This document shows, piece by piece, positions 18,801 to 51,094 of a stretch of DNA of 64,000 nt (position 1 is its first letter; each line of letters begins with the position of its first letter). A program made the translations under genes and the position numbers. This stretch comes from a virus. Its lineage: Duplodnaviria; Heunggongvirae; Uroviricota; Caudoviricetes. A model generated the notes under the pieces. That model saw nothing but the letters and a program-made list of their open reading frames with translations, was not told the DNA's origin and did no database searches. Where the stretch lies: the IMG/VR virus record IMGVR_UViG_3300043470_002422. One strand, 5' to 3'.

Positions 18801-20907
18801 TGGCTGCTTGAGTGATACGCTAAAAGACGAAGTGACGGTTTTTGGATTACCTATTGCCAACTATCTAGTTTCAACAGATACCTTCTGTTTCCCTGACCTG
18901 ACGCAGTTTTTGAACCAAAGTTTGGCTTCCTACAACTACACTTGGGATTTGGGCGATGGCACTGTAACAGGAACTACAAACCCCAAACATTTCTTCAAGA
19001 AAAGCTCAAGTCCATTTAGTGATACTACCTATTTCATCAAACTTGTTGCTACAAGCCCTTACGGATGTAAGGACACCGCAAACGGCAGTATGACCGTATT
19101 GCCTTACCCTATTCCAAAATTCAGTGTTGACAATCCTGCGGGTTGTGCGTCACACACAGTGAAGTTCAACAACCAGTCGGTAAACGTGTTGAATTACCTG
19201 TGGGTATTTGGAGATGGATATACATCAACCGATGTGAACCCTACCCATACCTTTATAAATACCGGTGCGAATGATACGGCGTATCAGGTTGTTCTTTATA
19301 CCTACTCTTTGGATTGTGTAGACTCTACTAGTATTTGGATACCAGTTTACAAGCCCTCGTATTCATTCTTCAGAACGGACCGGGTAAATCCATGTGATGC
19401 TGGATATTTTAAATTCCAGAGCTTTGGCGAAAATGCGCCAATTGTGAAGTACAATTTTGGTGATGGTAGCACATCAACTTTTCCCAACCTAACGCATTTA
19501 TTCCCAACCTCACCTTACACCGATACAAGCTTCATCGTTACACTATACACCACAAGCAATCGCGGTTGCACAGACAGCTTTAAACGCACAGTTACGCTCC
19601 CACAGCGACTTTCTATCGGAATGAAAGACACCAGTTATGCGCTATGTGCTCCGACGGTAATTCAGTTTACAAACTACACAAGGGGTGCACGCACATATAT
19701 TTGGGACTTTGGAGATAATGGAGGAAGTTCTCAGAAGAACCCAATTTATGAATACCAAAAACCGGGCTTATACGCATATAAGTTGTTTGCCTTTGACGCA
19801 AATGGGTGTATTGACAGTCAGGTTTCAAACGGCACTGTTCGTGTGGATGTGAGTCCTAAAGCGGATTTTGACTTTAGTCCTGGTAAAGGCCGCATGCCAA
19901 ATGACAACCGTATTTTCTTTACTGACAAGAGCCGCAGTGTGATACCACTGACCTATTTCTGGGATTTCTCGGATCCAGCGGGTATACCTGCAACGAGTAC
20001 GATTCAAAATGCAACCCACGATTTTAGCGACTCTGGAGACTATAAAATCTGTTTGACGGTAGATAATGGGGGTTGTAAGAATATATTTTGCAATTTTGTA
20101 CGCATCGATCCGGCATTTCCAACCCCAGATTTCTCGGTGGGTGGGGATTCGGGTTGCCCACCTCTTACCGTGCAGTTTACCAACCTTTCTGTGAACTCTG
20201 ACCGCTATATATGGTTCTTTGGTGACGGTGAAAGAAGCGAGGACAAAGACCCAGTCCATACCTATAAGTACAGCGGATATTACGACGTGATTTTGATCGC
20301 AAAAGGTCCAGGGGGTGAGGGTAAAACGGAGAAGAAGCAGTTCATAAAAGTATTGAATGCACCATTCACGTATTTCAATCTCACGCCCTCTATATTGTAC
20401 CTTCCTGATGCCAAATTCACAACTCGAAACCTGACTACTGGAGCTGTAGGATATCAGTGGAATGTGTACAACAGCAGCACTAGAAATCGAGTTGGGAATA
20501 GCCTTTTGGTGAATCCCTATTTCCAAGTAAACGATACGGGGCATTATGATGTGGAATTGATTTCAGTAAGCAGTCAGGTCTGTTATGATACCCTATTGTT
20601 GCCCAAGCCCATCTACGTGAATCCACGTGGCATATTGCATGTACCGGATGCCTTCACACCTACCAATGATGAACGCAACGATGTGTTTAAACCAAGCGCG
20701 ATAAACGTGCAAAAGGATTTCTATCTCTTCCAGATCTATAACAGATGGGGTGAAATCGTATTCGAAACCAAAGACCCCGATGAGGGTTGGGACGGCCGTA
20801 AAAAGGGCAAAATATGCCAAAGTGGAGTCTATGTATATAAAATCAATGCAAGACTCTTCAGCGGGGATGATATTTCAGCGGATGGTGTGGTTCACTTGAT
20901 TCGATAG
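15814..20907 (+). CDS. giant secreted protein (1697 aa) with PKD/Ig-like repeats and a CHU_C-type T9SS (gliding-motility-associated) C-terminal domain
   Basis: Signal peptide MAQKYLSKALAFALTLFATQGNLHAAC. At least 15 repeats of the W-D-F-G-D-G-T type. C-terminus VPDAFTPTNDERNDVFKP...IYNRWGEIVFE...GWDGR...GVYVYKI matches the TIGR04131-type CTD. GC content is higher than the surrounding genes. Confidence 0.75.
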   Translation: MAQKYLSKALAFALTLFATQGNLHAACGNLTPSFSNASNKTCGIPQVITLTNTSTGNSRNVATYKWYVGTTLLSTQVGKSTQKYTINTAGSYTFKLVAIDTGKVGCKDSTSTTITISASVPRILDGNRVNTYSPIWENCISSLGVPDTFGINIKPQDSLRNYTIVWGDGTGNSTGTLLLSSQSLYHKYNSLGQFTLLIIGTKGSCTDTLRGVVSNERNPVAGIVGPPTGTNAGCVPIRMRFINNSSLSSPSTTFTWDFGNGETIVRGFNTHKDTLFYTYKRFLCNGIVKLTQTNNCGSSFATWNPIMASSKDTAIIAPTNPTNCDLAVPFTFNNTSQNRFCSTPNNKKYLWVWGDGTNSGWSTSSASQSKTYSKRGVYQVLLIDSNGCGKDTARYTLRIDSMPTISAGPASAAGCSPLVVNFRDNSINATSRNWDFGYATPTSSAQNPTHTYQTGGTYRAVLTVANNCGSLKDTVLITVKQKVKANFNTPLTGCAPLTQKWTNTSVKGLAGTPTYFWDFGDGTTSTQVNPPDKTYSTLGTYTITLIATDSCGKDTIKKTFTVRGKPSATITLLSSSRCVGSTLDIRFVTSPVNTASVIWGDGTNGSSYFGLGGSVDRTVSRKYDSLRTYRFGVVMVDPSGCRDTNYLNIAMDPRPTMNYTYTTTNGCGPLDVTFTNTSAHNGGGNINQMKFLWNFSNGILAYSKDTAARFLPFKTRDSIYPVKLIGTNAFGCRDSITKTVRVYPKPLSKFSISEKDGCAPLDITTTNNSTPYDTGSINIMKFIWDFGNGRKAFGKDTAARFLASKTKDTVYTVSLISISEHGCRDTSSTTVRIYPKPKALFTRSKTEGCKPLGVTYVNQSVPYDTGNISIMSFAWDLGNRITSFATEPVGIYNDAINKDTTYKVRLIATSEHGCKDTANSTVLLHPNPVIKFDMSRTNGCGPLPVSFSNKSINGDAFTWEFGVYGTDTAKSPSKVFYGRDIFDSVVVVKLSAMSKFGCLSDTLKDEVTVFGLPIANYLVSTDTFCFPDLTQFLNQSLASYNYTWDLGDGTVTGTTNPKHFFKKSSSPFSDTTYFIKLVATSPYGCKDTANGSMTVLPYPIPKFSVDNPAGCASHTVKFNNQSVNVLNYLWVFGDGYTSTDVNPTHTFINTGANDTAYQVVLYTYSLDCVDSTSIWIPVYKPSYSFFRTDRVNPCDAGYFKFQSFGENAPIVKYNFGDGSTSTFPNLTHLFPTSPYTDTSFIVTLYTTSNRGCTDSFKRTVTLPQRLSIGMKDTSYALCAPTVIQFTNYTRGARTYIWDFGDNGGSSQKNPIYEYQKPGLYAYKLFAFDANGCIDSQVSNGTVRVDVSPKADFDFSPGKGRMPNDNRIFFTDKSRSVIPLTYFWDFSDPAGIPATSTIQNATHDFSDSGDYKICLTVDNGGCKNIFCNFVRIDPAFPTPDFSVGGDSGCPPLTVQFTNLSVNSDRYIWFFGDGERSEDKDPVHTYKYSGYYDVILIAKGPGGEGKTEKKQFIKVLNAPFTYFNLTPSILYLPDAKFTTRNLTTGAVGYQWNVYNSSTRNRVGNSLLVNPYFQVNDTGHYDVELISVSSQVCYDTLLLPKPIYVNPRGILHVPDAFTPTNDERNDVFKPSAINVQKDFYLFQIYNRWGEIVFETKDPDEGWDGRKKGKICQSGVYVYKINARLFSGDDISADGVVHLIR

Positions 20908-20973: not shown

Positions 20974-21324
20974 ATGGCAATAAAATACAAAGAGTTTAAA
21001 AAGAAATTACAAAACGAACCCCTAACCGAAGAGGAATTAACCATTATTCAGGAGACAGAAGATTATATTGACTCTGAAATTCTAAACCAATTTCCGAAGA
21101 GCAATTACGGAGAGGTTCTAATTGATTTGACTTATCCGTCTTTTACCTACTCTCATCAAAGAGGTTCTTTGATGGACTCAAATTCATATAGAAGATCCTT
21201 GATGAGATCCGAATTAGAAAAAAGATACAAATCAGCCGGATGGAAGATAGAGGTTAAATTCGACGATGGACTGGATGGACCTAATATGTCCGGTCCAGAT
21301 TATTGGATATTAAAAGGAAAGTAG
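20974..21324 (+). CDS. hypothetical protein
   Basis: ORF ending at a TAG. Confidence 0.5.
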   Translation: MAIKYKEFKKKLQNEPLTEEELTIIQETEDYIDSEILNQFPKSNYGEVLIDLTYPSFTYSHQRGSLMDSNSYRRSLMRSELEKRYKSAGWKIEVKFDDGLDGPNMSGPDYWILKGK

Positions 21325-21338
21325 GACCGTATATTTAT
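21325..21338 (+). promoter_or_regulatory. Class A variant GACCGTATATTTAT
   Basis: Upstream of ATG 21351. Confidence 0.5.
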
Positions 21339-21350
21339 AAAAATAACAAT

Positions 21351-22253
21351 ATGTTACAATTAAATTTAGCAGACTCAGATAAGTCACAGATCAAATTTAA
21401 ACCATCTGCATTTCCAGACGGCCAGCAATCAATCACTTTAGCTCTGTCCACAATCTCAGATCTAGAAATATCTTGCACAATCAAGTCCAGATTAAATTCT
21501 TTCAGGGATTTAGAACTCATAGTCTGCGCAGCAGCTGCATTGAGAGAAGCTGGAATGGAAAGAATTCACCTTTATATTCCATACTGTCTAGGCGGAAGAT
21601 CTGACATCAAATTTGAAGAAGGTGGCTTAAACTACATCAAGAGTGTAATTGCACCTATCATCAATTTACAAAAATTTACTTCTGTTACCGTCATGGATGC
21701 TCACTCGATAGCTCTAGAAAATTGCATTGATAATTTGAAAAAGCTAGACAATTCTTATCTTGCAAAATGGGCAATCAAGGATCTATCTTCAGAAGGAGGA
21801 GATTTCAAATTGGTCTCTCCTGATGCTGGAGCACTAAAGAAAATATTCTCAACAGCTAAATCTATCGGATATAAAGGAGAAATAATAGTTGCTGAAAAAG
21901 TTAGAGATTTATCTACCGGAAAAATTATTCACACCAAGGTACCTATAAACGTTTATGATGCAGATAAAGATTTTATCATTATAGATGATATCTGTGACGG
22001 TGGGAGAACATTCATAGAAATCGCCAAGGCTATAGAAGAAATGAGATCTTTAAGTTCAGTGGTTCATCCAGATAAGCACGGAAAAAATTACCTTATCGTA
22101 ACTCACGGCATCTTCAGCGCAGGATTTGAAGAACTTAGTAAATATTTTGATAGAATTTATACCACCAATTCTATCTCCGAAATAAACGAGTCTGAAAATT
22201 ACAAAGGTGCTGAATTTGATAAACAATTTGTTAAACAACTAAACGTATTCTAA
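21351..22253 (+). CDS. ribose-phosphate pyrophosphokinase (PRPP synthetase) family protein; candidate ADP-ribose diphosphokinase (Adps-like)
   Basis: PRTase motifs VMDAHS..., LVSPDAGALKK and IIIDDICDGGRTF. ATG 21351 follows the motif. Confidence 0.65.
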   Translation: MLQLNLADSDKSQIKFKPSAFPDGQQSITLALSTISDLEISCTIKSRLNSFRDLELIVCAAAALREAGMERIHLYIPYCLGGRSDIKFEEGGLNYIKSVIAPIINLQKFTSVTVMDAHSIALENCIDNLKKLDNSYLAKWAIKDLSSEGGDFKLVSPDAGALKKIFSTAKSIGYKGEIIVAEKVRDLSTGKIIHTKVPINVYDADKDFIIIDDICDGGRTFIEIAKAIEEMRSLSSVVHPDKHGKNYLIVTHGIFSAGFEELSKYFDRIYTTNSISEINESENYKGAEFDKQFVKQLNVF

Positions 22254-23634: not shown

Positions 23635-24516
23635 ATGGGAAATTCAAGTTATTCTACCTATAATAGATCCATCAGATCCGAATCTTTTGGCTATCATAGC
23701 AAATCAAGAAACGAGATCTTTACCCAAAGTAAAGAGGGTAAAGCTCACGAGCAAATGAGACCTAAAGGAATCGTCTACAGAGAATGTAGAGATTCCGAGG
23801 CTCACCCGAATGCTACCCCGATTCAGCTTTATTTGGACGTTACCGGAAGCATGGGACATATTCCCCACGAAATGATTAAAGACGGTTTACCAACTTTAAT
23901 GGGGAATCTAATTCAAAGAGGTGTAGAGGATGCTTCCCTTATGTTTGGAGCTATCGGTGACCACGAATGTGACAAATCACCTCTCCAAGTTGGACAGTTT
24001 GAATCTGGTGACGAAGAATTGGACATGTGGCTTACCAGAACCTGGCTCGAAGGCGGAGGTGGTGGAAACGGCGGAGAAAGCTATCCATTAGCTTGGTATT
24101 TCGCAGGAAATCACGTTGCAACAGATGCTTGGGAGAAGAGAAACCAAAAAGGATTCGTATTCACTATCGGTGATGAGCCTTTCCTTAATTCTCTACCAAT
24201 GTCTGCAGTAAAGGAAATCATGGGGGATTCAGCATCAGGCCAATCTACTTGGGATGCTACAGTTCTTCTAGAACAAGCTCAAAAGACAAATCACGTTTTC
24301 CATATCTTCTTAGAACATGGTTACAGAAAAGTTGATTCGGCTTGGAAAGAATTAATGGGAGATCACCTTATAGTTGCAAAAGACTATAAAGATATCCCGA
24401 AAATTATCTCAGAAACAATTTTAACTATTCAAGGGGAAAGAAAACCTTCTGAGAATGCGACCGTATATTCTAGTAATACTACAGATGAAAAAGACTCTGT
24501 AGATATTATCCTATAA
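23635..24516 (+). CDS. vWA-like (MIDAS DxTGSM) domain protein
   Basis: LYLDVTGSMGHIP and a GGGGGNGG loop. Confidence 0.4.
   Translation: MGNSSYSTYNRSIRSESFGYHSKSRNEIFTQSKEGKAHEQMRPKGIVYRECRDSEAHPNATPIQLYLDVTGSMGHIPHEMIKDGLPTLMGNLIQRGVEDASLMFGAIGDHECDKSPLQVGQFESGDEELDMWLTRTWLEGGGGGNGGESYPLAWYFAGNHVATDAWEKRNQKGFVFTIGDEPFLNSLPMSAVKEIMGDSASGQSTWDATVLLEQAQKTNHVFHIFLEHGYRKVDSAWKELMGDHLIVAKDYKDIPKIISETILTIQGERKPSENATVYSSNTTDEKDSVDIIL
24459..24477 (+). promoter_or_regulatory. Class A motif embedded in the 3' end of the upstream gene
   Basis: GACCGTATATTCTAGTAAT, 40 nt before ATG 24516. Confidence 0.5.
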
Positions 24517-25574
24517 TGAATACGAGCAAAATAGTAATTGGACTAAACTACGGAGACGAAGGAAAGGGGTTAACCACCTCTTTCCTCTGTTCCCAATCTA
24601 AAAATCCCATCGTTGTTAGATTCAACGGGGGTCACCAAGCAGGTCACACAGTATCCTTCAAAGGAAAAAGACATGTGTTTTCTAGCTTTGGATCAGGAAC
24701 ACTTCAAAAAGTTCCAACGTACTGGAGCAAATATTGCACATTCTCTCCGACAGCATTTCTAAATGAATTAAAATTTCTACTGGATAAATCTTTAAAATTC
24801 CCAGGATTTTATCTTGATCCTTTATGTCCAATCACAACACCTTACGATTTATACAGCAACCGAAAAGATTCCCAGAATGTGAGTCATGGAACAGTCGGGG
24901 TAGGATTTGGATCAACTCTTAAAAGACACGAAAACTTTTATAAGCTTTATGCACAGGATATGTTCTATCCAGAAGTCTTCAAAGCAAAATTAGAAAACAT
25001 TGCTAAGTATTACGGAATGGAGGATCTCGAAATCGATAACTTTTTAGAAGACGTAACAATTGTAACTACTATAGTTCAATTGACAAATGAAAAAGTTCTT
25101 TTAAATTATTCAGATGCTATATTTGAAGGGGCTCAAGGGGTTCTTTTAGATATGGATTTTGGATTTTTTCCAAACGTTACCAGATCTAATACAACATCTA
25201 AAAATGCACTGGAAATTTCTCCTCTGCATTCAAACGAAATCTACTACATCACAAGATCTTATTTAACTAGACACGGAGCTGGATTTCTTCCAGGAGAAAA
25301 AGAACTTCCCCTAATTAATAATGAATTGGAGACAAACGTCTCTCATGAATACCAAGGAAATTTTAGAACAGCAGATTTAGATTTGGATCTTCTAAACTAT
25401 TCTTTAAAATGTGACTCTCATTTTTCTGAGGGTCAAACCAAAAATCTAGTAATTACCTGCATGGATCAATATCCAATAGATGTAGAAAAATTGCTAGAAA
25501 AATTAGAAATTAAATTCAATAAAGTGTTCGTCTCTTACGGGGATTCACTTGATAAAATACAACAATTAAAATGA
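24516..25574 (+). CDS. adenylosuccinate synthetase homolog, short archaeal/PurZ-like type (352 aa)
   Basis: P-loop GDEGKG and NGGHQAGHTV motifs. About 80 aa shorter than bacterial PurA, as in phage PurZ. Confidence 0.65.
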   Translation: MNTSKIVIGLNYGDEGKGLTTSFLCSQSKNPIVVRFNGGHQAGHTVSFKGKRHVFSSFGSGTLQKVPTYWSKYCTFSPTAFLNELKFLLDKSLKFPGFYLDPLCPITTPYDLYSNRKDSQNVSHGTVGVGFGSTLKRHENFYKLYAQDMFYPEVFKAKLENIAKYYGMEDLEIDNFLEDVTIVTTIVQLTNEKVLLNYSDAIFEGAQGVLLDMDFGFFPNVTRSNTTSKNALEISPLHSNEIYYITRSYLTRHGAGFLPGEKELPLINNELETNVSHEYQGNFRTADLDLDLLNYSLKCDSHFSEGQTKNLVITCMDQYPIDVEKLLEKLEIKFNKVFVSYGDSLDKIQQLK

Positions 25575-27571: not shown

Positions 27572-29101
27572 ATGTTTAAATGTAATTCACTATTCTACAC
27601 AGACGGCTACAAAATTGGCCACAAAAGAATGCTAGCACCAGGAACAACTCGTTTATACGGAACCTGGATTCCACGAAGTATTAAACACGCTCCAAAAGGA
27701 GTTAAAAAAATCGTATCGTTTGGCCAGCAACTAGCTGTTAAATGGTTACACGATGAATTCGAAGAAAATTTCTTCAAGCTTCCTTTAGAAGAAGCAATGG
27801 AATTCGGAAATGATATGGCAATGTATCTCGGCCTCGAGTATGATGCTTCTCATTTCGAAGCTCTCCACAAATTAGGTTACTTGCCTATCAAAGTTAAATC
27901 TTTACCAGAAGGTATCGAAACTCTTCCAAATGTTCCACACATGACCTTCATTAATACCGTGGATGGATTTGCTTGGTTAACCCTTTATTTGGAAACCATC
28001 ATCTCTTCATTAGCTTGGAAGCCTTCAACATCAGCTACAATCGCTTTACAGTACAAAAGAAACCTGATCGAATGGGTAAGAAAAACAGACCCTAAAAACA
28101 TCTGGTTAGTTCCTTTCCTAGCTCACGACTTCTCGGCTAGAGGTTTGTCTCCTTGGGACATGTTAGCAAGCGGTTTAGGACACGCTACATCATTCAGAGG
28201 TTCAGACACAATAGTTTGTATCCCAGCAGCTCGATACTTCTACAACGAGCCTAAAAACGAGGTCTGCATCAATTCTGTAAACGCTTCAGAACACTCAGTA
28301 TCTACCACCAAAATTTTCACAGTCGGCGAACAACAAATGATAGCAGACTGGTTAAGAGAATTCGACAAAGGTATCCTTTCAATCGTTTCAGACACATTCG
28401 ATTTATGGACACTAATCACCAAATATTTACCTGCCAACAAAGAGGCTATCATGGCCAGAGACGGTAAATTGGTTATCAGACCTGACTCAGGAGACCCAGT
28501 AGATATTATTTGCGGATTAGAAAATAAAGTTCTTGAGGAAGGAGTGGGATATAAAGAAGAATACAAAGAAAGCCCAGAATACAAAGGAGTTATCGAATTA
28601 CTTTGGGACATCTTCGGAGGTACAATCAACGAAGAAGGTTACAAAGTACTTGATCCTCACATCGGAGCAATCTACGGGGACTCTATTACCTTGGACAGAC
28701 AAATCCAAATCTACGAAAGATTAGCAGCTAAAGGATTTGCAACTACCAATATCGTTTTAGGTATCGGTTCTTACACCTACCAAATGAACACCAGAGACAC
28801 CTTAGGCTTCGCAGCTAAAGGAGCATGGTTCGAAGTAGAAGAAAACGGTACTAAAGTAGGCTACGACATCTACAAAGATCCTATCACAGACGATGGAACT
28901 AAGAAATCCTTAAAAGGACTTATTAGAGTCGATGAAGTTTCAGTAACTTCCGAGGAAACTGGAATTACTTATACTAAGTATGAAGTAAAAACCCAATGTA
29001 CCCCAGAACAAGAAGAAGGAGGCATCTTACAAACCATCTACGAAAATGGTAAATTCTACAATCAAACTACATTAACTGAAGTTAGATCAAAATTAAACTA
29101 A
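27572..29101 (+). CDS. nadV: nicotinamide phosphoribosyltransferase (NAMPT/NadV) family; candidate Namat
   Basis: 509 aa with the N-terminus MFKCNSLFYTDGYKIGH, typical of NAMPT. Confidence 0.7.
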   Translation: MFKCNSLFYTDGYKIGHKRMLAPGTTRLYGTWIPRSIKHAPKGVKKIVSFGQQLAVKWLHDEFEENFFKLPLEEAMEFGNDMAMYLGLEYDASHFEALHKLGYLPIKVKSLPEGIETLPNVPHMTFINTVDGFAWLTLYLETIISSLAWKPSTSATIALQYKRNLIEWVRKTDPKNIWLVPFLAHDFSARGLSPWDMLASGLGHATSFRGSDTIVCIPAARYFYNEPKNEVCINSVNASEHSVSTTKIFTVGEQQMIADWLREFDKGILSIVSDTFDLWTLITKYLPANKEAIMARDGKLVIRPDSGDPVDIICGLENKVLEEGVGYKEEYKESPEYKGVIELLWDIFGGTINEEGYKVLDPHIGAIYGDSITLDRQIQIYERLAAKGFATTNIVLGIGSYTYQMNTRDTLGFAAKGAWFEVEENGTKVGYDIYKDPITDDGTKKSLKGLIRVDEVSVTSEETGITYTKYEVKTQCTPEQEEGGILQTIYENGKFYNQTTLTEVRSKLN

Positions 29102-32211: not shown

Positions 32212-32943
32212 ATGTTTAAATTTTATGAAGTTGGAGGAAAAATAAGAGACGAAATTTTAGAATTATCTTCTAAAGATGTTGATTATGTAGCAGTTCCGAA
32301 AGAAGAATTACTAGATACAGTTGAGAAGGCAGAAGATATGTTCAGCATGTTAGAATCTTTTCTAAGAGTAGAAAAATTTGAGATCTTCTTGGTAACCCCA
32401 GACTGTTTTACAATTAGAGCAAAATTCCCAGCAGGACACAAATACTCAGGGGTTGCAGACTTTGTAATGGCCAGAAAGGAAATTGGTTATATTCCAGGAA
32501 CTAGAACCCCAATTGTTAAGCCGGGAACCCTATTTGACGATCTTCAGAGAAGAGATTTTACCCTAAACGCTTTAGCAAAAGACGAGGACGGAACCATAAT
32601 CGATTTCTTTGGAGGAATAGAGGATCTAAAGAAAAACCGTTTAAAAACTCCACTAGACTGCAAAATAACTTTTGATGACGATCCGCTTAGAATTCTTAGG
32701 GCCATCAGATTTTGTATAACTAAAGGGTTTTGGATTGGACCCTATATGGACGGGGTAATTCAGGATTACGACTACGAAGGAAAAATGGGGGTAGTTTCTA
32801 TGGAGAGAATAAGAGAAGAATTGTTCAAATGTTTCAAACACGATACATTAAAAACCCTCAAAACACTTCACGAATACCCAGCCCTAAGAAACTACATTTT
32901 TGAAAAAAATACACTTTGGTTAAAACCCACAATGGAGCAATAA
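32212..32943 (+). CDS. tRNA nucleotidyltransferase / poly(A) polymerase family head domain (CCA-adding enzyme-like, lacks a C-terminal HD)
   Basis: FYEVGGKIRDEILELSSKDVDYV and RRDFTLNALA are class II nucleotidyltransferase head motifs. Confidence 0.6.
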   Translation: MFKFYEVGGKIRDEILELSSKDVDYVAVPKEELLDTVEKAEDMFSMLESFLRVEKFEIFLVTPDCFTIRAKFPAGHKYSGVADFVMARKEIGYIPGTRTPIVKPGTLFDDLQRRDFTLNALAKDEDGTIIDFFGGIEDLKKNRLKTPLDCKITFDDDPLRILRAIRFCITKGFWIGPYMDGVIQDYDYEGKMGVVSMERIREELFKCFKHDTLKTLKTLHEYPALRNYIFEKNTLWLKPTMEQ

Positions 32944-37342: not shown

Positions 37343-38302
37343 GTGAAAATTACCGAGCACATTAAGAAAGGAAAAGAGAATAAAAAGACCCTGTTCTCTT
37401 TTGAAATACTTCCCCCTGTAAAAGGACAAGATATAAATTCAATCTACAATGCAATAGATGGACTTTTGGAATTTAACCCATCATTTATAGATGTTACTTA
37501 TCATAGGGAAGAATATGCTTTCAGAAAGAATCCCGATGGATCTCTAGTTAAATATTCAACCAAGAAGAGACCAGGAACAGTTGCTATCTGCTCGGCAATC
37601 CAAAACAAATACAATATAGATTCTGTTCCACATTTGATCTGTGGGGGATTTACTAAAGAGGAAACTGAAAATGCCCTTATAGATTTAAATTTTTTAGGAA
37701 TTGATAATATTCTAGCTCTCCGTGGGGATTCTATTAAAGGGGAATCTTCTTACTTGGCAAATCCAGAAGGAAATAAAAATTCAGTCGAGCTAATGTCTCA
37801 GATAAGGGATCTCAATGGAGGAAAATATCTCCTCGATGGATTTGAAGGGGACAAGTCCGATTTCTGCTACGGCGGAGCTTGCTACCCGGAAAAATATTCA
37901 GAATCTCCAAATATGGAATTTGATATAGAATGGATGAAGAAAAAAGTGGAATTAGGGTCAGAATACTTCGTTACTCAGATGTTCTTCGATAATAAAGTCT
38001 ACTGGAAATTTGTTCAAAAGTGCAGAGAGAATGGAATAGACGTTCCAATTATCCCAGGAATAAAACCAATCACAGCACAGAGTCAAATTTGGGGTTTACC
38101 CAAGATCTTTGGAATTCATCTTCCTTACGAGTTATCAAATGATCTAAGAAAAACCGGAACTAATTCCGAAGCTGCTGAGATTGGAATCAAATGGGCTGTT
38201 GAGCAGTGCAAAGATCTAATTAGAGGGGGAGCTCCAGTTCTTCATTTCTACACGATGTCAAAATCCAAATCAACTGCAGCTATCTGCAAGAAGATTTTCT
38301 AA
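37343..38302 (+). CDS. metF: 5,10-methylenetetrahydrofolate reductase (MetF family)
   Basis: Collinear matches to E. coli MetF: FSFEILPP, FIDVTYH, VPHLICGG, ILALRGD, YFVTQMFFD, GIDVPIIPGIKP, HFYTMSK. The start appears to be GTG. Confidence 0.75.
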   Translation: MKITEHIKKGKENKKTLFSFEILPPVKGQDINSIYNAIDGLLEFNPSFIDVTYHREEYAFRKNPDGSLVKYSTKKRPGTVAICSAIQNKYNIDSVPHLICGGFTKEETENALIDLNFLGIDNILALRGDSIKGESSYLANPEGNKNSVELMSQIRDLNGGKYLLDGFEGDKSDFCYGGACYPEKYSESPNMEFDIEWMKKKVELGSEYFVTQMFFDNKVYWKFVQKCRENGIDVPIIPGIKPITAQSQIWGLPKIFGIHLPYELSNDLRKTGTNSEAAEIGIKWAVEQCKDLIRGGAPVLHFYTMSKSKSTAAICKKIF

Positions 38303-38340: not shown

Positions 38341-39453
38341 ATGGCTAAAACGTTATTACCCTTTGCTCTCTATGAAGAGCTTGAAAAGATAGAATCTTTA
38401 AATCCAGATGAAATGAGAAATTTCTTGTCTTCTCTTCAGAAGTATTGTGAATCTACAGGAAAAGATTTTACTAAAGTTTGTACTGACATTGGACTTGAAG
38501 CTCCTTCCTGGGCAGGAAAATTGACCCACAAACAGAATGTATTACTAAACTCCCTTATCTCAAGGGATTATTACAGTGAAGAAGATGAAGGAACCTCTTG
38601 GTCAATAAATCCCGAAACCGAAAGACTTGATGTAATTGGGAAATTTAAAATATCATCTTACAATAAAGAGAAATGGGGGGAATTAATAGAAATGGGGATA
38701 AAAATTGGTAAGGTAAAAGGTTATTTCGACGTTTCCGATTGTGGCATTGATTCATCAGAGGGATTCCCTACTGAAGTAACTGGGGATTTTAATATCAGTG
38801 GTAATAAATTAACCAATCTAGTTGGATGTCCCGTAAAAGTAGGGGGTAAATACAAATGTGATAGAAATAAATTAACCTCTTTAGAAGGAGCACCAGAACT
38901 ATCAGACAATTTTGATTGCAGCGACAATAGTGGTCTAAGAAACTTAAAAGGAGGACCTAAGGAAGTAACCTCTATTTATTATGCTAATAGATGTAATCTG
39001 GATTCTCTAGAAGGGTTTCCTAGTATAATAAGTCCTTCTATATCCATTTATGTAGACAGTAATAATCTTTATACACTAGAGGGTATTCCTCTAAGCCCTG
39101 CAATTTCTCCTTATAGAATCAGATGCAACAAGAACCCATTAAAAAGTTCAGTTTTAACAAATGCTTACAAAGAAGCAGCTAGAACTGGAAGCTGGGCAGT
39201 TGGATATCTAAGTATGTTTACCGATCCTGAATTCATCAAAACCGGAAAAGCTCCAAAGGATCCAATTAGAGAAAAATTATCTCCTGCGAATTTAAAGAAA
39301 GAAATTGAAACCAACGGGGAAGCTTTTGTAGTTGGTCTTAAATCAATCTGGAAGGATTTCAGGGTTCAAAAAATTCTAAAAGGAATTGAAATCCCAGAGG
39401 ACACCAAAGCAGACGCAGAATTGCTAGCAGATTTAGATGACGTTGGACTTTAA
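38341..39453 (+). CDS. LRR-like 22-aa repeat protein with a C-terminal DLDDVGL (same family as 7474-8301)
   Basis: Repeats of the form C-D-R-N-K-L-T-S-L-E-G-A-P. Ends ELLADLDDVGL. Confidence 0.6.
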   Translation: MAKTLLPFALYEELEKIESLNPDEMRNFLSSLQKYCESTGKDFTKVCTDIGLEAPSWAGKLTHKQNVLLNSLISRDYYSEEDEGTSWSINPETERLDVIGKFKISSYNKEKWGELIEMGIKIGKVKGYFDVSDCGIDSSEGFPTEVTGDFNISGNKLTNLVGCPVKVGGKYKCDRNKLTSLEGAPELSDNFDCSDNSGLRNLKGGPKEVTSIYYANRCNLDSLEGFPSIISPSISIYVDSNNLYTLEGIPLSPAISPYRIRCNKNPLKSSVLTNAYKEAARTGSWAVGYLSMFTDPEFIKTGKAPKDPIREKLSPANLKKEIETNGEAFVVGLKSIWKDFRVQKILKGIEIPEDTKADAELLADLDDVGL

Positions 39454-39996: not shown

Positions 39997-40332
39997 ATGA
40001 ATCAAACAGTAAACCTACTTAAGACCGGATCCGAATATATTTTAGCTCTTCCGAGAGGGAAAAGACTAGAAAAAGGAGATTTTGCAATAGGGGTGTCCAA
40101 CTCTTATTCAAAGGTTTCTTCTGTTAAAGAAGGGGATTATTTTGATGCTAGAATTTACTATCTTGAAGATGGTAGCTGTCTAGTAAACCCAATTAAAATT
40201 GTGGGATTTGAATCCGATATAGATCCAGAGGTTCTAACAAAAATAAAGGAACTTAAAGAAGTTCCTTTGTATATCGAGATCGTAGAAAACCAGATCGTTC
40301 GTGAATCTGGTAAGATTAAAGTTATTTATTAA
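39997..40332 (+). CDS. hypothetical protein
   Basis: ORF whose stop is convergent with the minus-strand operon. Confidence 0.45.
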   Translation: MNQTVNLLKTGSEYILALPRGKRLEKGDFAIGVSNSYSKVSSVKEGDYFDARIYYLEDGSCLVNPIKIVGFESDIDPEVLTKIKELKEVPLYIEIVENQIVRESGKIKVIY

Positions 40333-41291
40333 ACAAAGTTTCCTTTGCTGTCCATCGGAACGTGAATGTATTTACCAAATGGAGGTACGTTGAAATTCTT
40401 TCCTTTTTCGCAAATAAACCAGAAAACTCTCTTTACGTAATTGTTAATTCCATAGGAGGATTTATCAGGATATTCGGCAAATGAATCTGTCAAGTAAATT
40501 ACTACAGATGGATTAATTTTCTGCTTCTGAATCCAAGCAAACGGTGGAATAAATCCTTTAGCATTACCTCCAGTAGAAGCAATCTTTCCAAAGTCTGGTT
40601 TACCACCTTTTTTAACAATATCAATAGAATCTATATCGTCTGAACAGTAGATGATATAGGTTGTGTCTATATCCATCTTTGTGGAAAGATAAAGAACTTC
40701 AGAGATAAAGGTTTTGATTTGTTCCTTAGAAATAGATCCCGAGGTATCTACAGGAAGAACTAAAGTTCTAAGAGTATCTTTACCTGCTCTCTTTCTTCCG
40801 TATAAAATATCACCAGATCCTAAAAATCTTCTATTTGGTAGTGTTTCTTCCCATTTATTCAAGGCACTATCCATGAACTTTTTAAGTTCTTTTTTCCAGT
40901 CAATCTTTGGCTTGGTTGTTCTTAAATCTATCAATAGTCTTCTTCCTTTTTCAGAAAGAGATGCTCCTGCAGAAGACATAGCTGCTCTTGTTGCATTTTC
41001 CCACATCGCGGAAACTTTTGATTTGCTTCCGCCCGATCCCATAGCTTGCTTAGAGGTATAGGACTTGGTAGATGTTTTGGGTCCCTGTGATGGATTTCTC
41101 TCGTAACCTGGACCTGTTTTTGCATTTGGATCTAATTTAGGGGTTTCCACGTCTTCAGGAGCTTTTTCTAATTCCTGTGGTGAACTTGTTCCTTCTTTTT
41201 TATCCCCAGCTTGAGGTTTCTGTTGCCCTGGTTCTACAGTGTCAACATCTACTATAACGAATTCTCCTTTTTTAACTTGCATTTTATTCAA
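40329..41291 (-). CDS. vWA (MIDAS) domain protein, third gene of the MoxR-peptidase-vWA operon
   Basis: VLPVDTSGSI is a DxSGS MIDAS motif. Low-complexity N-terminal half. Confidence 0.6.
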   Translation of the reverse strand: MNKMQVKKGEFVIVDVDTVEPGQQKPQAGDKKEGTSSPQELEKAPEDVETPKLDPNAKTGPGYERNPSQGPKTSTKSYTSKQAMGSGGSKSKVSAMWENATRAAMSSAGASLSEKGRRLLIDLRTTKPKIDWKKELKKFMDSALNKWEETLPNRRFLGSGDILYGRKRAGKDTLRTLVLPVDTSGSISKEQIKTFISEVLYLSTKMDIDTTYIIYCSDDIDSIDIVKKGGKPDFGKIASTGGNAKGFIPPFAWIQKQKINPSVVIYLTDSFAEYPDKSSYGINNYVKRVFWFICEKGKNFNVPPFGKYIHVPMDSKGNFV

Positions 41292-42309
41292 CTATTATAT
41301 CTCCGTTAGGAAGAACACTTTTTACTACCCCTATTTTACCTGCGTTGGGACCTACCGTAATTCTAACTCTTTTACCAACTATGCTCTGCTCTCCTTCTCC
41401 TGGTTTGTCTCCTTCTCCTGGTTTGTCTCCCGGTTTTCCCTTCCCCTCTTCTTCACCTGGCATATCCCCTGGTTTATCTCCTGGCATATCCCCTGGTTTA
41501 TCTCCTGGCATATCCCCCGGTTTATCTCCTGGTTTATCTCCTCCTTCTCCCATTTCTTTTTCTTCTTCTGCCTGATCGTCTCTAACGTCCTGAACTACAG
41601 AATTTTCTGAATCCGGTTCTGATAAATCTTCATCAGAATCAATAACGTGGGTTCCAGATTCCTCGGATTCACCAGAATCCTCAGTTGCTTTTTTCTGCTG
41701 TTCTCTGTCTTCTTTTAGAAGATCGTAAATATCTTCAGCTCTCATACCGACATATTTCTCTTCGAACAATCCCATTCTGCTTCCATCTGGTTGTTTTGGC
41801 CACTCGAATTGTCCAGGAACTACTTCTTCATTTAAGATTGGATTGATTGCGTAATCTGCTGCATAGTTCCAAAGTAAAGGATTTCTATTTCCTCTTCTGG
41901 TCATGTGATCACCTACACAATGTAGAATCTCGTGGCATAAAACAAATCTGATAGCTGCGTCCGATTGGCTTAAAACGAAATCCGGATGATATTGAATGTT
42001 TAGACCGTTAGTACACATAGTTGTGTATCTTGGATCAGAACTTCCGTAGATGTTTAATTTTGCTAGTAGCTGAGCGAAGAATCCTTTCTTAGAATTGATC
42101 CATAAAAGATTTCTATTTACTTTTACTCTTGCTTGATTTTCTTTATCAGCATCTCCCTCAAAAAGTTCGTAACTGTTTTTCTCGACCACATATTGGCCAA
42201 ATTTTTCAATTACTTTAATTCCTTTAGTAGAATTTCTGTTTGATTCTAGGGTAACATGAAACTTAGCAAACGAGTCTATGATATCGGTATGTATTTTCTT
42301 AAATTCCAT
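41284..42309 (-). CDS. HExxH zinc metallopeptidase-like protein (DUF2201_N-type) with a C-terminal PGDKPGDM tandem repeat and a KOW-like tail
   Basis: VLCHEILHCVGDH. Repeat GDKPGDMPGDKPGDM... C-terminal GKRVRITVGPNAGKIGVV. Confidence 0.6.
   Translation of the reverse strand: MEFKKIHTDIIDSFAKFHVTLESNRNSTKGIKVIEKFGQYVVEKNSYELFEGDADKENQARVKVNRNLLWINSKKGFFAQLLAKLNIYGSSDPRYTTMCTNGLNIQYHPDFVLSQSDAAIRFVLCHEILHCVGDHMTRRGNRNPLLWNYAADYAINPILNEEVVPGQFEWPKQPDGSRMGLFEEKYVGMRAEDIYDLLKEDREQQKKATEDSGESEESGTHVIDSDEDLSEPDSENSVVQDVRDDQAEEEKEMGEGGDKPGDKPGDMPGDKPGDMPGDKPGDMPGEEEGKGKPGDKPGEGDKPGEGEQSIVGKRVRITVGPNAGKIGVVKSVLPNGDIIVE
41400..41555 (-). repeat. In-frame 24-nt tandem repeats encoding (PGDKPGDM)n
   Basis: catatcccctggtttatctcctgg is repeated three times in tandem and is flanked by degenerate copies. 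Confidence 0.7.
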
Positions 42310-42319
42310 TAGCTAGAAA

Positions 42320-43873
42320 TTATACTAAACCTTTATCTTTCATTCCACCTTTTACCATCATTGCTGCTTCAATTCTAAGCTTTCCTTCCGGTGTATCTTT
42401 AATTTTTAGTGTTTCTTCGTTTACTCCAAATTCAGGATATTTTTCTTTGATTCTAGCATAAACCCATGATAGGATTTCAAGATTGCTTAAACCTTGGTAG
42501 TATTTCATGATATTGAATAGATCCTGATCTGTTGCTTTTCCTCCTGACATTTCTTCAGCTTTTCTTAAAGCCATTTCAAATACTCCATAAGCTACTGAAG
42601 AGAAATCTGCTCCTTTTGAAAGTGGTTTAGCTTTTTCTGGATTCTTAACAATATCTTCCAAATCTCTATCTGAAATTCTTCTAATAACATCAAGATAAGC
42701 TTTTAATTTACCTGCCGCTGATGGACCGATAGCATCTGAGTAGATGTTGTAGATCGTATCTGTTGGTAGGTCTCTCCAATTTGTAGCTCCCTCGTCTTCC
42801 ATTTCATCCTTAAGAGATGCTGCTGCATCTGTCCAAGATCTAGGGGTTGGGAATTTAAGAGTTGCTTTTTCTGTATCTAAGTAGTGGAATAATTCTGGAT
42901 TTCTTTCTACGAATCCAACAATTTCTGGTTCGAAATCCCCTGGTTTTGATTTAGCCCATTTAGACCAAGATTCAACGTCAGGAACAAAGTTAACGATATT
43001 GAATCTGTCTGCCATAGCAAAGTCAAATTCTGCAACTTCTCCAGATCCGCTAACGTCTTCTGGTCTGTTACCAGCTGCTACGATAACCCATTTATCAGGT
43101 AATTGATAAGTTCCAACTCTACCCATTTGAACGAACTGCATGATAGCATTCAAAATATATTTGTTTGCTCTGTTCATCTCGTCCATGAATATAAATCCAC
43201 CTTTACCTTCTGGTCCATTGTCCGTAGGTAAAACGATAGGAGGATTTGATCTTGTTATTCCTTTACCTGCAGAAATTAATCTTCCTTCTTCTCCATATTT
43301 AGGTTCTTCAATATCAACAACTTTAGGTATTCCTAAAAAGTCTTCCGGTGACATAAATTGCAAGTCTAAGTTAAGCATAGGAACTCCGGCTGCTTGAGCT
43401 GCTTGACCAACGATTTGGGTTTTTCCTATACCTGGAGCTCCGTAGATGAAGATAGGTTTTGCTCTACCTCCTCTTTGTTTAGATCTGTAAAGTTTACCTA
43501 ACATGCTCTTAAGTTCAGTAGCGTCCACGTTTCTAACTGTTTGATCTTCTCCTGTATATTCCAGAGGAACTTGAGCTTCATCTAGGTCAGATATTAAAGA
43601 CTCATTGACAGGATTCATCTTTGCAAATTCTGTTCCTTTATATAGATTATTAATCTGAGAAACTATATTTCCGTTTGCTGGGTCAAAATAAGTAACTGAA
43701 GGTGTTCCTTTTTTTGGACCTGCAGGAATCATTTTGATAATACCATCTTTGATAGCCTTTGCGATTCTAGCTATCCATCCACCGGCTTTAGAGAGAAAAT
43801 CTCCAAATCTTGATTCGTTTGTTGTGCTTCTGTTGTTTACATAATCATCGAAGCTAAATACTCTTTTTCCCAT
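42320..43873 (-). CDS. MoxR-like AAA+ ATPase (AAA_5)
   Basis: Walker A GAPGIGKT and Walker B IFMDEMNRA. First gene of the minus-strand operon. Confidence 0.7.
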   Translation of the reverse strand: MGKRVFSFDDYVNNRSTTNESRFGDFLSKAGGWIARIAKAIKDGIIKMIPAGPKKGTPSVTYFDPANGNIVSQINNLYKGTEFAKMNPVNESLISDLDEAQVPLEYTGEDQTVRNVDATELKSMLGKLYRSKQRGGRAKPIFIYGAPGIGKTQIVGQAAQAAGVPMLNLDLQFMSPEDFLGIPKVVDIEEPKYGEEGRLISAGKGITRSNPPIVLPTDNGPEGKGGFIFMDEMNRANKYILNAIMQFVQMGRVGTYQLPDKWVIVAAGNRPEDVSGSGEVAEFDFAMADRFNIVNFVPDVESWSKWAKSKPGDFEPEIVGFVERNPELFHYLDTEKATLKFPTPRSWTDAAASLKDEMEDEGATNWRDLPTDTIYNIYSDAIGPSAAGKLKAYLDVIRRISDRDLEDIVKNPEKAKPLSKGADFSSVAYGVFEMALRKAEEMSGGKATDQDLFNIMKYYQGLSNLEILSWVYARIKEKYPEFGVNEETLKIKDTPEGKLRIEAAMMVKGGMKDKGLV

Positions 43874-43905: not shown

Positions 43906-43917
43906 GGGATATATATC
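43906..43917. promoter_or_regulatory. Palindromic class B motif GGGATATATATC in a divergent intergenic region (bidirectional promoter candidate)
   Basis: Reads as the class B motif on both strands, between minus gene 42320-43873 and plus gene 43936. Confidence 0.5.
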
Positions 43918-48964: not shown

Positions 48965-51094
48965 ATGACTGAAAACAATATAATTGGAGAGAACTTATTG
49001 GGAGATATCTTATACACTCCTCCTAAAATTTCAATGGGACCTATCGATGACGATGATATTGATGATGTTCCAAGCTACAAATCTAATCCAACCTCTTCAA
49101 CCACTCCTGCCCTAGATTCTTTTAGCAGGGATTTAACAGCTCTAGCTGCAAAGGGAGAACTTGATCCAATTGTAGGAAGAGATTCTGAGATCGAAAGAGT
49201 TTCTCAAATTCTAGGTCGTAGGAAAAAGAACAATCCAGTTCTAATAGGGGAACCCGGGGTTGGTAAATCAGCAATTGCCGAAGGACTAGCACTTAGAATT
49301 TTCCAAAGAAAGGTTTCTAGAAATCTACTAAATAAGAGAGTAGTTAGTTTGGATATGGGTCTAATTGTTGCCGGAACTAAATACAGGGGTCAGTTTGAAG
49401 AGAGAATGAAGTCCATTATGGATGAGCTAAGAAAAAATCCAGATGTAATTATTTTCATCGATGAATTGCACACTCTAGTTGGTGCCGGTGGTTCATCAGG
49501 ATCTTTGGATGCTTCTAACATGGTAAAACCTGCACTAGCAAGAGGGGAATTTCAATGTGTTGGAGCAACAACTCTAAATGAATATAGACAGTATATCGAG
49601 AAAGACGGAGCACTAGAAAGAAGATTTCAAAAAGTTATCATTGAAGCTCCAACTGCAGACGAGACAATTATAATTCTAAACAATATCAAGGCTAAGTACG
49701 AGGATCATCATAATGTTCAATACACTGACGATGCTATCATCAATTGTGTTAAGTTAACAGAAAGATACATTACCGACAGAAACTTCCCAGACAAAGCTCT
49801 AGATGCTTTAGACGAAGCGGGTAGCAGATCTCAATTAACCCAAGTTAAGGTTCCTGATGCATTGGTTAATTTAGAGAAGAATCTAGAGAAAACTACAGAG
49901 GAGAAAAAGAAGTGTGTTACCAAACAGGACTATGAAGGAGCTGCCAAATATAGAGATCTGGAAAGAAAGATTAAAGCTGGCATCGAATCGGAAACTAAAG
50001 CCTGGGAGCAAAAGCTAAAAGAGAAGAAGAAAATCGTAGACGGTGAAAAAGTTGCTGAAGTAGTTTCTTTGATGACTGGGATTCCTCTACAAAAGATCAG
50101 TCAGGACGAAAACGAAAGACTTGCTAAAATGGCTGAAGCTTTAAGAGATAGAGTTATTGGACAAAATGAAGCAGTTGAAAAAATATCAAAGGCAATTTTA
50201 AGAAATAGAATCGGTTTAAAAGACCCAAATCGTCCAATCGGATCATTTGTTTTTCTAGGACCTACCGGAGTTGGTAAAACCCAATTGGCTAAGGAATTGG
50301 CTAAAATGGTATTCGGTGATGCCGATGCAATGATTAGAGTTGATATGTCCGAGTACATGGAGAAATTCAATTCAACCAAATTGATTGGAGCTCCTCCAGG
50401 ATATGTTGGACACGAAGATGGTGGTCAATTAACAGAGAAAGTTAGAAGAAAGCCATATTCAGTAGTTCTATTTGACGAGATTGAAAAGGCCCATCCGGAT
50501 ATTTTCAACTCTCTATTACAAATTCTAGACGAGGGTATGATTACCGATGGATTAGGAAGAAAGATTAATTTTAAAAATTGTTTAATCATCTTGACTTCTA
50601 ACGTTGGTCAAAGAAAGGCTGCCGAATTTGGAGGAGGTGTAGGATTCAAATCTTTAGATAAGAGCAATGTGGAAAAAGAATCAAAGATCACGATCAGAAA
50701 AGAATTGGAAAAAACTTTCTCTCCGGAATTTCTAAACAGAATAGATGAAATTATAAACTTTAATTCTCTAACTCAAGATGATCTAATTAAGATTATAGAC
50801 GTTGAAATTAAAAAGATGACTCCGAGATTTGAAGATCTAGGGTTTAAATTAGTCATCTCTAAGGATCTAAAAGAAAAGATAGCAGAAAGAGGATATGACC
50901 CCAAATTTGGAGCAAGACCTCTGAAAAGACTTCTTCAAAAATATATCGAAGACACTATTGCAGAGCTCTTTATCCAAAAGAAAGTTGAATCAGGTTCTAA
51001 GATTACTCTATCCCTAGATTCTTCCAAAGATGCTGAGATCGAACCCCCAGTAAAGGTAAGAATCACAAATCCAAAAAAGGGCTCAGAAGAGTAA
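48965..51094 (+). CDS. ClpC/ClpA-family double-AAA+ unfoldase with a UVR-like insertion and no N-terminal Clp_N domain
   Basis: D1 Walker A GEPGVGKS and D2 Walker A GPTGVGKT. A UVR-like KKCVTKQDYEGAAKYRDLERKIK lies between them. Confidence 0.7.
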   Translation: MTENNIIGENLLGDILYTPPKISMGPIDDDDIDDVPSYKSNPTSSTTPALDSFSRDLTALAAKGELDPIVGRDSEIERVSQILGRRKKNNPVLIGEPGVGKSAIAEGLALRIFQRKVSRNLLNKRVVSLDMGLIVAGTKYRGQFEERMKSIMDELRKNPDVIIFIDELHTLVGAGGSSGSLDASNMVKPALARGEFQCVGATTLNEYRQYIEKDGALERRFQKVIIEAPTADETIIILNNIKAKYEDHHNVQYTDDAIINCVKLTERYITDRNFPDKALDALDEAGSRSQLTQVKVPDALVNLEKNLEKTTEEKKKCVTKQDYEGAAKYRDLERKIKAGIESETKAWEQKLKEKKKIVDGEKVAEVVSLMTGIPLQKISQDENERLAKMAEALRDRVIGQNEAVEKISKAILRNRIGLKDPNRPIGSFVFLGPTGVGKTQLAKELAKMVFGDADAMIRVDMSEYMEKFNSTKLIGAPPGYVGHEDGGQLTEKVRRKPYSVVLFDEIEKAHPDIFNSLLQILDEGMITDGLGRKINFKNCLIILTSNVGQRKAAEFGGGVGFKSLDKSNVEKESKITIRKELEKTFSPEFLNRIDEIINFNSLTQDDLIKIIDVEIKKMTPRFEDLGFKLVISKDLKEKIAERGYDPKFGARPLKRLLQKYIEDTIAELFIQKKVESGSKITLSLDSSKDAEIEPPVKVRITNPKKGSEE

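Follow-up and report, generated by a model that had tools for sequence, protein, structure and literature searches.

The 64,000-nt stretch of a Caudoviricetes virus genome analysed here (IMG/VR record IMGVR_UViG_3300043470_002422; hereafter the window) carries, on its minus strand, genes for a MoxR-clade AAA+ ATPase, a zinc-metallopeptidase-like protein and a protein with a von Willebrand factor A (vWA) domain and its metal ion-dependent adhesion site (MIDAS). This locus raises the question of why a peptidase and a vWA domain, which in most relatives form one polypeptide, are encoded by two adjacent genes. A first-pass annotation, made from the sequence alone, had offered a genuine split, a programmed frameshift and a sequencing artefact as answers; of these, the genuine split stood and the other two did not, since the homologs are split too, start the vWA protein at an ATG of its own and vary in spacing and frame. 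We regard it as likely that the locus is a phage MoxR-clade AAA+ operon whose metallopeptidase-vWA partner underwent a stable fission in a flexible linker. The genes and their junction are as follows.

42320-43873, minus strand: AAA+ ATPase of the MoxR/AAA_5 clade, 517 aa (Pfam AAA_5, phrog_1297)
41284-42309, minus strand: zinc-metallopeptidase-like protein, 341 aa, with a DUF2201_N domain, a low-complexity linker and a KOW-like tail (Pfam)
40329-41282, minus strand: vWA/MIDAS protein, 317 aa from the ATG at 41282, with an N-terminal hairpin, a low-complexity linker, a helical pre-vWA region and the vWA domain (Pfam)
41280-41286, minus strand: gene junction TAA-A-ATG, with the peptidase stop codon at 41286-41284, one spacer base and the vWA ATG at 41282-41280 (read from the sequence)

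The junction between the peptidase and vWA genes

The open reading frame (ORF) list holds the three co-oriented minus-strand ORFs at the coordinates of the first-pass annotation, and their reported identities agreed with Pfam matches above the cutoffs for AAA_5, DUF2201_N and DUF2201. The 8-nt overlap reported between the second and third genes was, on the other hand, a product of mechanical ORF calling from TTG 41291, the first start-type codon past an in-frame TAG at 41294-41292. The minus-strand junction reads GTT GAA TAA A ATG CAA, so that a spacer of 1 nt separates the two genes. The codon matching TTG 41291 is not a start in relatives (it is, for example, TCG in L001), while ATG 41282 and the MQVKKG N-terminus are conserved in them. 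As judged from these alignments, ATG 41282 is the conserved start in every relative examined.

A search of 5.8 billion proteins with the peptidase (E ≤ 1e-5) returned 319 homologs. The best 120, which were listed, share 54-92% identity with it, are mostly 300-365 aa long and nearly all consist of DUF2201_N plus KOW; a vWA domain was found on none of these 120. In an alignment of 18 peptidase sequences all end in ...NGDII(I/V)x. The vWA protein as query gave 199 homologs, and the 120 listed were all stand-alone DUF2201 proteins, mostly of 290-340 aa, down to 43% identity. We then compared 50 related loci (L001-L050). The order ATPase-peptidase-vWA is kept in every locus long enough to show it, the ATPase gene lying directly upstream of the other two as in the window, and the junctions take the following forms.

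TAA, 1 nt, ATG: relative frame +1; most loci, including the window and L049
2-nt spacer: relative frame +2; L015, L023, L025, L028, L035 and L041
6-nt spacer: relative frame 0; L029
8-nt spacer: relative frame +2; L045
23-nt spacer, AT-rich, with stop codons inside: relative frame +2; L043
ATGA overlap (-4 nt): relative frame +2; L050

Across these spacings the vWA ATG stays at a constant protein position while all three relative frames are seen, and the last sense codon of the peptidase varies (E, G, Q, D, R or S). These observations bear on the possibility that the peptidase gene ends in a programmed +1 frameshift, or in readthrough, and so yields a fused peptidase-vWA protein. The abutting genes of the window, with the vWA frame at +1 relative to the peptidase frame, would suit such an event, as would the fact that most relatives are fused. 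However, orthologous loci differ in relative frame (0 in L029, +2 in several and +1 in most), others have a 4-nt ATGA overlap or a spacer of 8 or 23 nt, the 23-nt one containing stop codons, and the TAG just upstream of TTG 41291 closes the vWA frame in the window, leaving two codons for a shift. The slippery site suggested for inspection was not found in conserved form, given the variable last sense codon. Homologs with the same split and independent translation signals had been named beforehand as an argument against a frameshift, and such homologs are what the search returned. We consider a programmed frameshift excluded for practical purposes, with very little probability left to it, because there is neither a fixed frame relation nor a conserved slippery site.

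The junction lies in an A-rich stretch (TAAAATG), in which an indel introduced by sequencing or assembly into a homopolymer of a truly fused gene might be suspected. Against this, hundreds of independent contigs (JGI, ENA, Logan and NCBI; 45-96% identity) share the residue at which the peptidase ends and the vWA methionine, and the removal of one base would leave the lineages with other spacings still discontinuous. A sequencing artefact is excluded because the split recurs in hundreds of independent assemblies with differing spacings; what chance remains for it is negligible. Taken together, the sequence comparisons indicate that the split is a genuine, ancient and conserved gene fission with independent initiation of the vWA protein. 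Translation of the vWA cistron is probably coupled to termination at the peptidase stop codon. A split intein was considered and rejected: peptidase tail and vWA hairpin together comprise only about 50 aa, without a Hint domain, a conserved Cys/Ser/Thr nucleophile at the junction or an HN motif.

Fused relatives and the sequences at the break

When 1.84 billion cluster representatives were searched exhaustively with HMMER, 6551 matched at E < 1e-3, and the best 150 of these were classified, a protein of at least 370 aa with DxSxS in its C-terminal half being counted as fused. By this definition 92 of the 150 were fused and 58 were not. The fused peptidase-vWA protein is thus the majority form among these relatives, in agreement with the annotation that the two parts are usually one polypeptide and are separated here. 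In fused relatives at 38-49% identity (P0140, P0148, P0150 and P0153-P0156) the vWA half closely resembles that of the window. The peptidase spans positions 8-209 and the vWA protein positions 172-392 of the fused phage family phrog_1314 (394 positions), which the two proteins together cover end to end. Because both cover phrog_1314, they correspond to the two halves of one protein in most phages; unlike in the phrog_1314-type fused protein, DUF2201_N and DUF2201 do not share a polypeptide at the window locus. Among cultured phages, PA5oct has a fused protein of 394 aa and the N4-like Erwinia phage Pastis one of 383 aa, encoded after an AAA_5 ATPase of 344 aa.

Two further observations concern this family. 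In the cultured N4-like Escherichia phage U1G (L047 2079-3253; MZ394712.1 11824-12998) two ORFs with a 4-nt overlap are annotated, with the break in the same linker and no KOW tail; either a separate fission event or a frameshift introduced by sequencing may lie behind this. In PHROGs, phrog_1314 is labelled 'HNH endonuclease', a label carried into many RefSeq records (PA5oct, PBECO4, phage G and N4-like phages). Pfam searches found no HNH domain in the family members tested and found DUF2201_N and DUF2201 instead; judged by domain content, the label is misleading.

Two short conserved sequences face each other across the break.

41293-41379, minus strand: KOW-like tail GKRVRITVGPNAGKIGVVKSVLPNGDIIV at the extreme C-terminus of the peptidase (Pfam KOW, residues 311-339)
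41229-41282, minus strand: conserved N-terminal hairpin motif MQVKKGEFVIVDVDTVEP of the vWA protein (homolog alignment)

The KOW-like tail had been recognised in the annotation, and it matches Pfam KOW (PF00467) with 28.0 bits (cutoff 22.3; E 1.7e-6). Precomputed Pfam KOW matches are present on almost all listed peptidase homologs, and a profile search of PDB with the tail retrieved the SPT5 KOW domain (E 4.5e-5) and uL24. The peptidase ends after about three strands, while a complete KOW/SH3-like barrel has five. At the other side of the junction, split vWA homologs begin with M-x-[VI]-K-K-G-x-[FY]-x-[VI]-[VI], a motif retained in sequences with as little as about 43% identity. The tails of complete split peptidases take three forms: a three-strand form ending in ...V(Y/L)PNGDI(E/I)I, a helix variant ending in ...DGTYDVVNVTKEEVKASLS, and a form ending in ...DGQITIQPE.

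It is conceivable, though we judge it doubtful, that the KOW-like tail and the vWA hairpin are the halves of one small β-domain which reassembles in trans, replacing the lost peptide bond non-covalently. Equally tentative is the proposal that the three-stranded tail and the β-hairpin form a small barrel in trans as a docking module purpose-built for the fission. Several observations point in this direction. Both pieces are tethered by linkers at the exact break and are far better conserved than the low-complexity linker itself. A hidden Markov model of the tail matched none of the 92 fused and 23 of the 58 non-fused representatives; about 10 of the other non-fused ones carry the helix-variant tail and most of the rest are fragments, so that nearly all complete split forms have a KOW-like tail. 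The types of tail and hairpin change together across lineages, '...NGDIEI' occurring with 'MxVKKGxY', '...DVVNVTKEEVKASLS' with 'MDIEKLNLGDFKILKP' and '...DGQITIQPE' with 'MINVNLADILILNPD'. When tail and hairpin were joined into one profile, it aligned with ribosomal protein uL24 over positions 10-41, which span the junction (E ~3e-3). In homolog P0010 an additional copy lies within a single chain, its three KOW-like strands being followed by a '...TTILNPEDY' strand.

On the other hand, a single-sequence AlphaFold 2 model of the 55-aa concatenation showed no barrel, with a predicted local distance difference test (pLDDT) score of 62, and in a model of the tail with the full vWA protein, which used an alignment of the vWA protein only and left the tail without alignment depth, residues 1-128 had a pLDDT below 50. 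Appending the hairpin did not improve the scores of Pfam KOW-type domains, and a covariation that might have marked a contact (tail I/E with hairpin F/Y) did not hold in two additional true pairs. The tail and hairpin pair is the one lead of some novelty here, and the split with its tail and hairpin is a small case of how a gene fission may be compensated. If the re-association is real, the locus would show a domain naturally divided between two adjacent genes, a state confined to the split lineages, and the two cistrons would be the non-covalent equivalent of the ancestral fused protein. Stable fission of the metallopeptidase-vWA partner remains our preferred reading of the locus.

The three proteins, their possible role and their setting

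The residues expected for activity, and the linker repeats, are placed as follows.

43441-43418, minus strand: Walker A GAPGIGKT of the ATPase
43183-43178, minus strand: Walker B DE of the ATPase
41905-41934, minus strand: putative zinc site HEILHCVGDH of the peptidase (H126, E127, H130, H135; alignment of homologs)
41390-41542, minus strand: tandem repeats (PGDKPGDM)n and (GEGDKP)n, in frame, in the Pro/Gly/Asp/Lys linker of the peptidase (Tandem Repeats Finder, TRF)

The ATPase matches Pfam AAA_5 with 31.9 bits (cutoff 22; E 1.6e-7) and phrog_1297 'ATPase' with an E-value of 1e-54. Its AAA+ core has Walker A, Walker B, sensor 1 and arginine residues all present, and GAPGIGKT (Walker A), FMDEMNRA (Walker B), AAGNRP and ADRF are invariant across 11 aligned orthologs. 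The MoxR clade is defined by an insert in helix 2 of the AAA+ core (PMC7159879). From the Walker A lysine to the Walker B aspartate there are about 80 residues, including a conserved QFMxPEDFLGIP segment; both this spacing and the segment are consistent with such an insert.

The peptidase matches Pfam DUF2201_N (PF13203) with 87.5 bits (cutoff 23.2; E 1.5e-24) over profile positions 15-214 of 271. The 18-sequence alignment shows HEILHCVGDH without variation. The possibility raised at first that the protein lacks the remaining metallopeptidase ligands found no support, HExxHxxxxH being present in all 120 close homologs listed and in 142 of the 146 nearest representatives having HExxH; on this conservation, H135 is the presumptive third zinc ligand. 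No solved structure of the DUF2201_N family was found, and the peptidase profile matched PDB entries through the KOW tail only.

As annotated, an in-frame repeat array lies in the linker: TRF found a period of 24 (3.2 copies, 98% matches) at 41456-41532 and a period of 18 (2.3 copies) at 41390-41430. Linker length and composition differ among the aligned peptidase homologs, and L041 (3452-4498) and L042 (3602-4498), otherwise identical, encode proteins of 349 and 299 aa, the 50-aa difference lying in a (GEGEP)n array. This difference is either a population length polymorphism or an assembly collapse. Since homolog linkers vary and near-identical contigs differ by 50 aa, the linker appears to be a length-polymorphic spacer. 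In the distant relative L045 (3-1036), a 182-aa protein with a KOW-like tail and without HExxH is encoded upstream of the vWA gene and is preceded by a separate 162-aa ORF, which may represent a further break of the peptidase gene.

The vWA protein matches Pfam DUF2201 (PF09967) with 46.9 bits (cutoff 26.4; E 3.8e-12). Its MIDAS residues are D179, S181 and S183 (40748-40734) of DTSGS, T237 of STGGN and D266 of LTD; these are invariant or nearly so in the homolog alignment, and DxSxS is present in 118 of the 120 vWA homologs listed. The MIDAS motif is thus complete and metal binding is predicted. In an AlphaFold 2 model built from a 36-sequence alignment, block-mean pLDDT in the vWA domain was mostly 70-88. 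When this model was compared with PDB by Foldseek, the best matches were the MIDAS domains of human midasin (MDN1) and Chaetomium Rea1, followed by the A1 domain of von Willebrand factor, integrin I domains and Ro60; the probability was 1.00 for the MIDAS, A1 and integrin I domains alike. Within the low-complexity linker of split vWA proteins, SP(Q/T)ELE(T/K)(A/P)PEDVETPxLDPNAKTGPGY is conserved (41100-41190, vWA residues ~32-60) and might serve for docking or cleavage.

The characterised MoxR-vWA pairs suggest, by analogy, a remodel-and-cleave mechanism. In it, a target protein, which might be of phage or host origin, would be bound through an acidic or extended peptide at the metal site of the vWA domain, remodelled by the ATPase hexamer and cleaved by the HExxHxxxxH zinc peptidase.

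The neighbourhoods of the module were examined for its role. In N4-like phages the ATPase/peptidase-vWA pair lies in the early/middle region, adjoining the RNA polymerase II and dUTPase genes, while in relatives of the window module the neighbours are genes for DNA polymerase B, a topoisomerase, an RNase H-like protein and a methyltransferase. Together with the metabolic genes around the module in the window, these settings would suit an anti-defence or host-takeover device, in which the MIDAS domain and ATPase capture a host protein and the peptidase destroys it, rather than a virion-assembly chaperone, and they weakly favour host takeover or replication-phase proteostasis over virion assembly. 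However, neighbourhood is weak evidence in mosaic jumbo-phage genomes, and PADLOC defence models and known anti-defence families had no match; NCBIfam also returned nothing. The sole proposal in print, which draws on the MoxR-vWA pair of Acidianus two-tailed virus, is a role in virion assembly (PMC7824862). We hold the host-takeover role to be on the unlikely side.

Some points weigh against our reading of the locus as a whole. By profiles the ATPase is only weakly MoxR-like: its matches to AAA_3 (19.9 bits, cutoff 27) and bpMoxR (18.5 bits, cutoff 27) both fall below the cutoffs, and searches of PDB sequences with it, single or as a profile, gave Walker-A-level matches only, none of them significant. 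The ATPase, peptidase and MIDAS activities are predicted from motifs. The early/middle-type neighbourhoods fit the published virion-assembly proposal poorly, and the context gives no substrate. The peptidase and vWA halves may re-associate physically, but the AlphaFold 2 models leave tail, hairpin and linker disordered.

Expression of the module was considered next to a short element upstream of the ATPase gene.

43908-43917, no strand assigned: 10-nt perfect palindrome GATATATATC between the divergent genes 43873 (minus) and 43936 (plus)

The divergent intergenic region is 62 nt long. The half-site GATATATA occurs 10 times in the window, compared with about 3 expected, and 1 of 100 shuffles reached 10. 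These sites (6608, 7461, 8303, 15416, 34357, 38310, 43908/43917, 47312 and 48109) often have the form GGGATATATAA, and 8 of the 10 sit 4-36 nt before a start codon in the orientation of the gene. In every relative examined, GATATATA(A/T) precedes the ATPase ATG by about 25-36 nt, as a merged palindrome GGATATATATCC in lineages sharing the same divergent neighbour and as two separate inverted copies about 50 nt apart in more distant lineages. The 16-nt palindrome form TTGGGATATATATCAA was not convincingly repeated in the window, where only the 8-nt core is enriched, and a sigma-70 scan of the 62-nt intergenic region found nothing. The palindrome shared with gene 43936 and its conservation thus agree with what had been annotated, while its driving of the operon has the standing of a proposal: GATATATATC is a candidate bidirectional promoter or regulatory element that may act as a promoter.

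The spacers between the cistrons are 10 nt (ATPase/peptidase) and 1 nt (peptidase/vWA), and a terminator scan found no terminator-like sites inside the three genes. The three cistrons probably form one transcription unit read from the GATATATA-type element upstream of the ATPase gene, and would then be co-transcribed. Downstream, a convergent 111-aa ORF (39997-40332, plus strand) shares 4 nt (40329-40332) with the 3' end of the vWA gene, and a minus-strand terminator-like hairpin (40268-40245) lies within this ORF.

The source genome is most likely that of a jumbo phage because near-identical vWA homologs lie on contigs of 391 and 399 kb. Its host is possibly one of the Bacteroidota, a hint that comes from a CHU_C type IX secretion sorting domain and from the apparent lack, by inspection, of Shine-Dalgarno sequences before the three genes. 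The CHU_C domain stands at the C-terminus of a 1697-aa protein with at least 8 PKD repeats (15814-20907, plus strand). The phage is an uncultured one. A blastn search of the 3.5-kb region against 50,697 phage records gave no match, and pattern scans of IMG/VR and GTDB species genomes gave no confirmed relatives.

Other genes of the window include an auxiliary metabolic cluster (21303-22253, 24516-25574, 27572-29101, 32212-32943 and 37343-38302) encoding phosphoribosyl pyrophosphate synthetase, an adenylosuccinate-synthetase-like protein, nicotinate phosphoribosyltransferase (NAPRTase), tRNA nucleotidyltransferase and methylenetetrahydrofolate reductase, the last of which we judge unusual in a phage. 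An SPFH protein is also encoded. A 709-aa ClpB/ClpA-like double-AAA protein (48965-51094, plus strand; AAA_2, AAA_lid_9, ClpB_D2-small and UVR), a few kb from the MoxR module, is a second large AAA+ chaperone of the genome. A 370-aa protein (38341-39453, plus strand) has tandem repeats of about 22 aa (G.P..V.G.F.C..N.LTSLEG.P) with a leucine-rich-repeat-like look, and Pfam gave no significant match to it.

Comparison with known systems

In group 2.2 jumbo phages a MoxR ATPase and a metallopeptidase-vWA protein have been described as a chaperone-cochaperone pair (Iyer et al. 2021, Viruses 13:63, PMC7824862), for which a role in virion assembly with proteolytic processing was proposed by analogy with Acidianus two-tailed virus (PMC7824862). 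The window module resembles this pair, seen also in Pastis and PA5oct, in that an AAA_5-type ATPase gene is followed by DUF2201_N and then DUF2201, and the same HExxH and MIDAS residues are present. It differs in that the pair has a single peptidase-vWA protein of 380-400 aa, whereas the window has two cistrons. The window proteins also have a long repeat-rich linker, a KOW-like tail on the peptidase and a conserved N-terminal hairpin on the vWA protein, and the ATPase is larger (517 aa, compared with 344 aa in Pastis).

Characterised MoxR-vWA pairs comprise the rubisco activase CbbQ-CbbO, NorQ-NorD, RavA-ViaA and p618/p892 of Acidianus two-tailed virus. There the client is expected to be bound by the MIDAS through an acidic residue and to be remodelled by the hexamer. 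As in these pairs, the gene for a MoxR-clade ATPase in the window lies beside that for a vWA/MIDAS adaptor; to our knowledge, none of them includes a peptidase domain. HMMER searches against PDB detected no sequence similarity between the window proteins and these pairs. The pair of Acidianus two-tailed virus is the one cited in the jumbo-phage study (PMC7824862).

The module had also been placed at first with the ternary MoxR-vWA conflict systems, an assignment that did not survive comparison. In those systems the third component is VMAP, iSTAND (an inactive STAND NTPase), FtsH or a β-propeller (Kaur et al. 2020, PMC7159879). The MoxR and vWA core is common to both, and there is the weak bpMoxR match of the ATPase (18.5 bits against a cutoff of 27). 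In contrast to the conflict systems, the third gene of the window is DUF2201_N, the detached N-terminal half of the vWA protein, and the module is viral and does not belong to a cellular defence island. A defined ternary conflict system was thus rejected, the third component being none of the four named. On domain content, the module is a binary MoxR plus metallopeptidase-vWA pair that was turned into three genes by fission.

A more distant likeness is to midasin/Rea1, whose MIDAS domains are the best structural match of the modelled vWA domain, and the ATPase falls in the 'dynein-related' AAA_5 family of Pfam. This resemblance is at the level of the fold only (10-13% identity). Midasin is a giant eukaryotic polypeptide with six AAA modules and a C-terminal MIDAS domain, and has no peptidase.

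The MoxR plus metallopeptidase-vWA module is among the more widespread uncharacterised phage modules, occurring in N4-like phages, several jumbo-phage groups and many uncultured phages. The split lineage provides a natural separation of peptidase from adaptor, in which both activities can be delivered as separate polypeptides, and the split proteins are handy constructs for assigning ATPase binding and client binding to one half or the other. The pair itself is already known in jumbo phages and is no new kind of system; what is new here is its split form.

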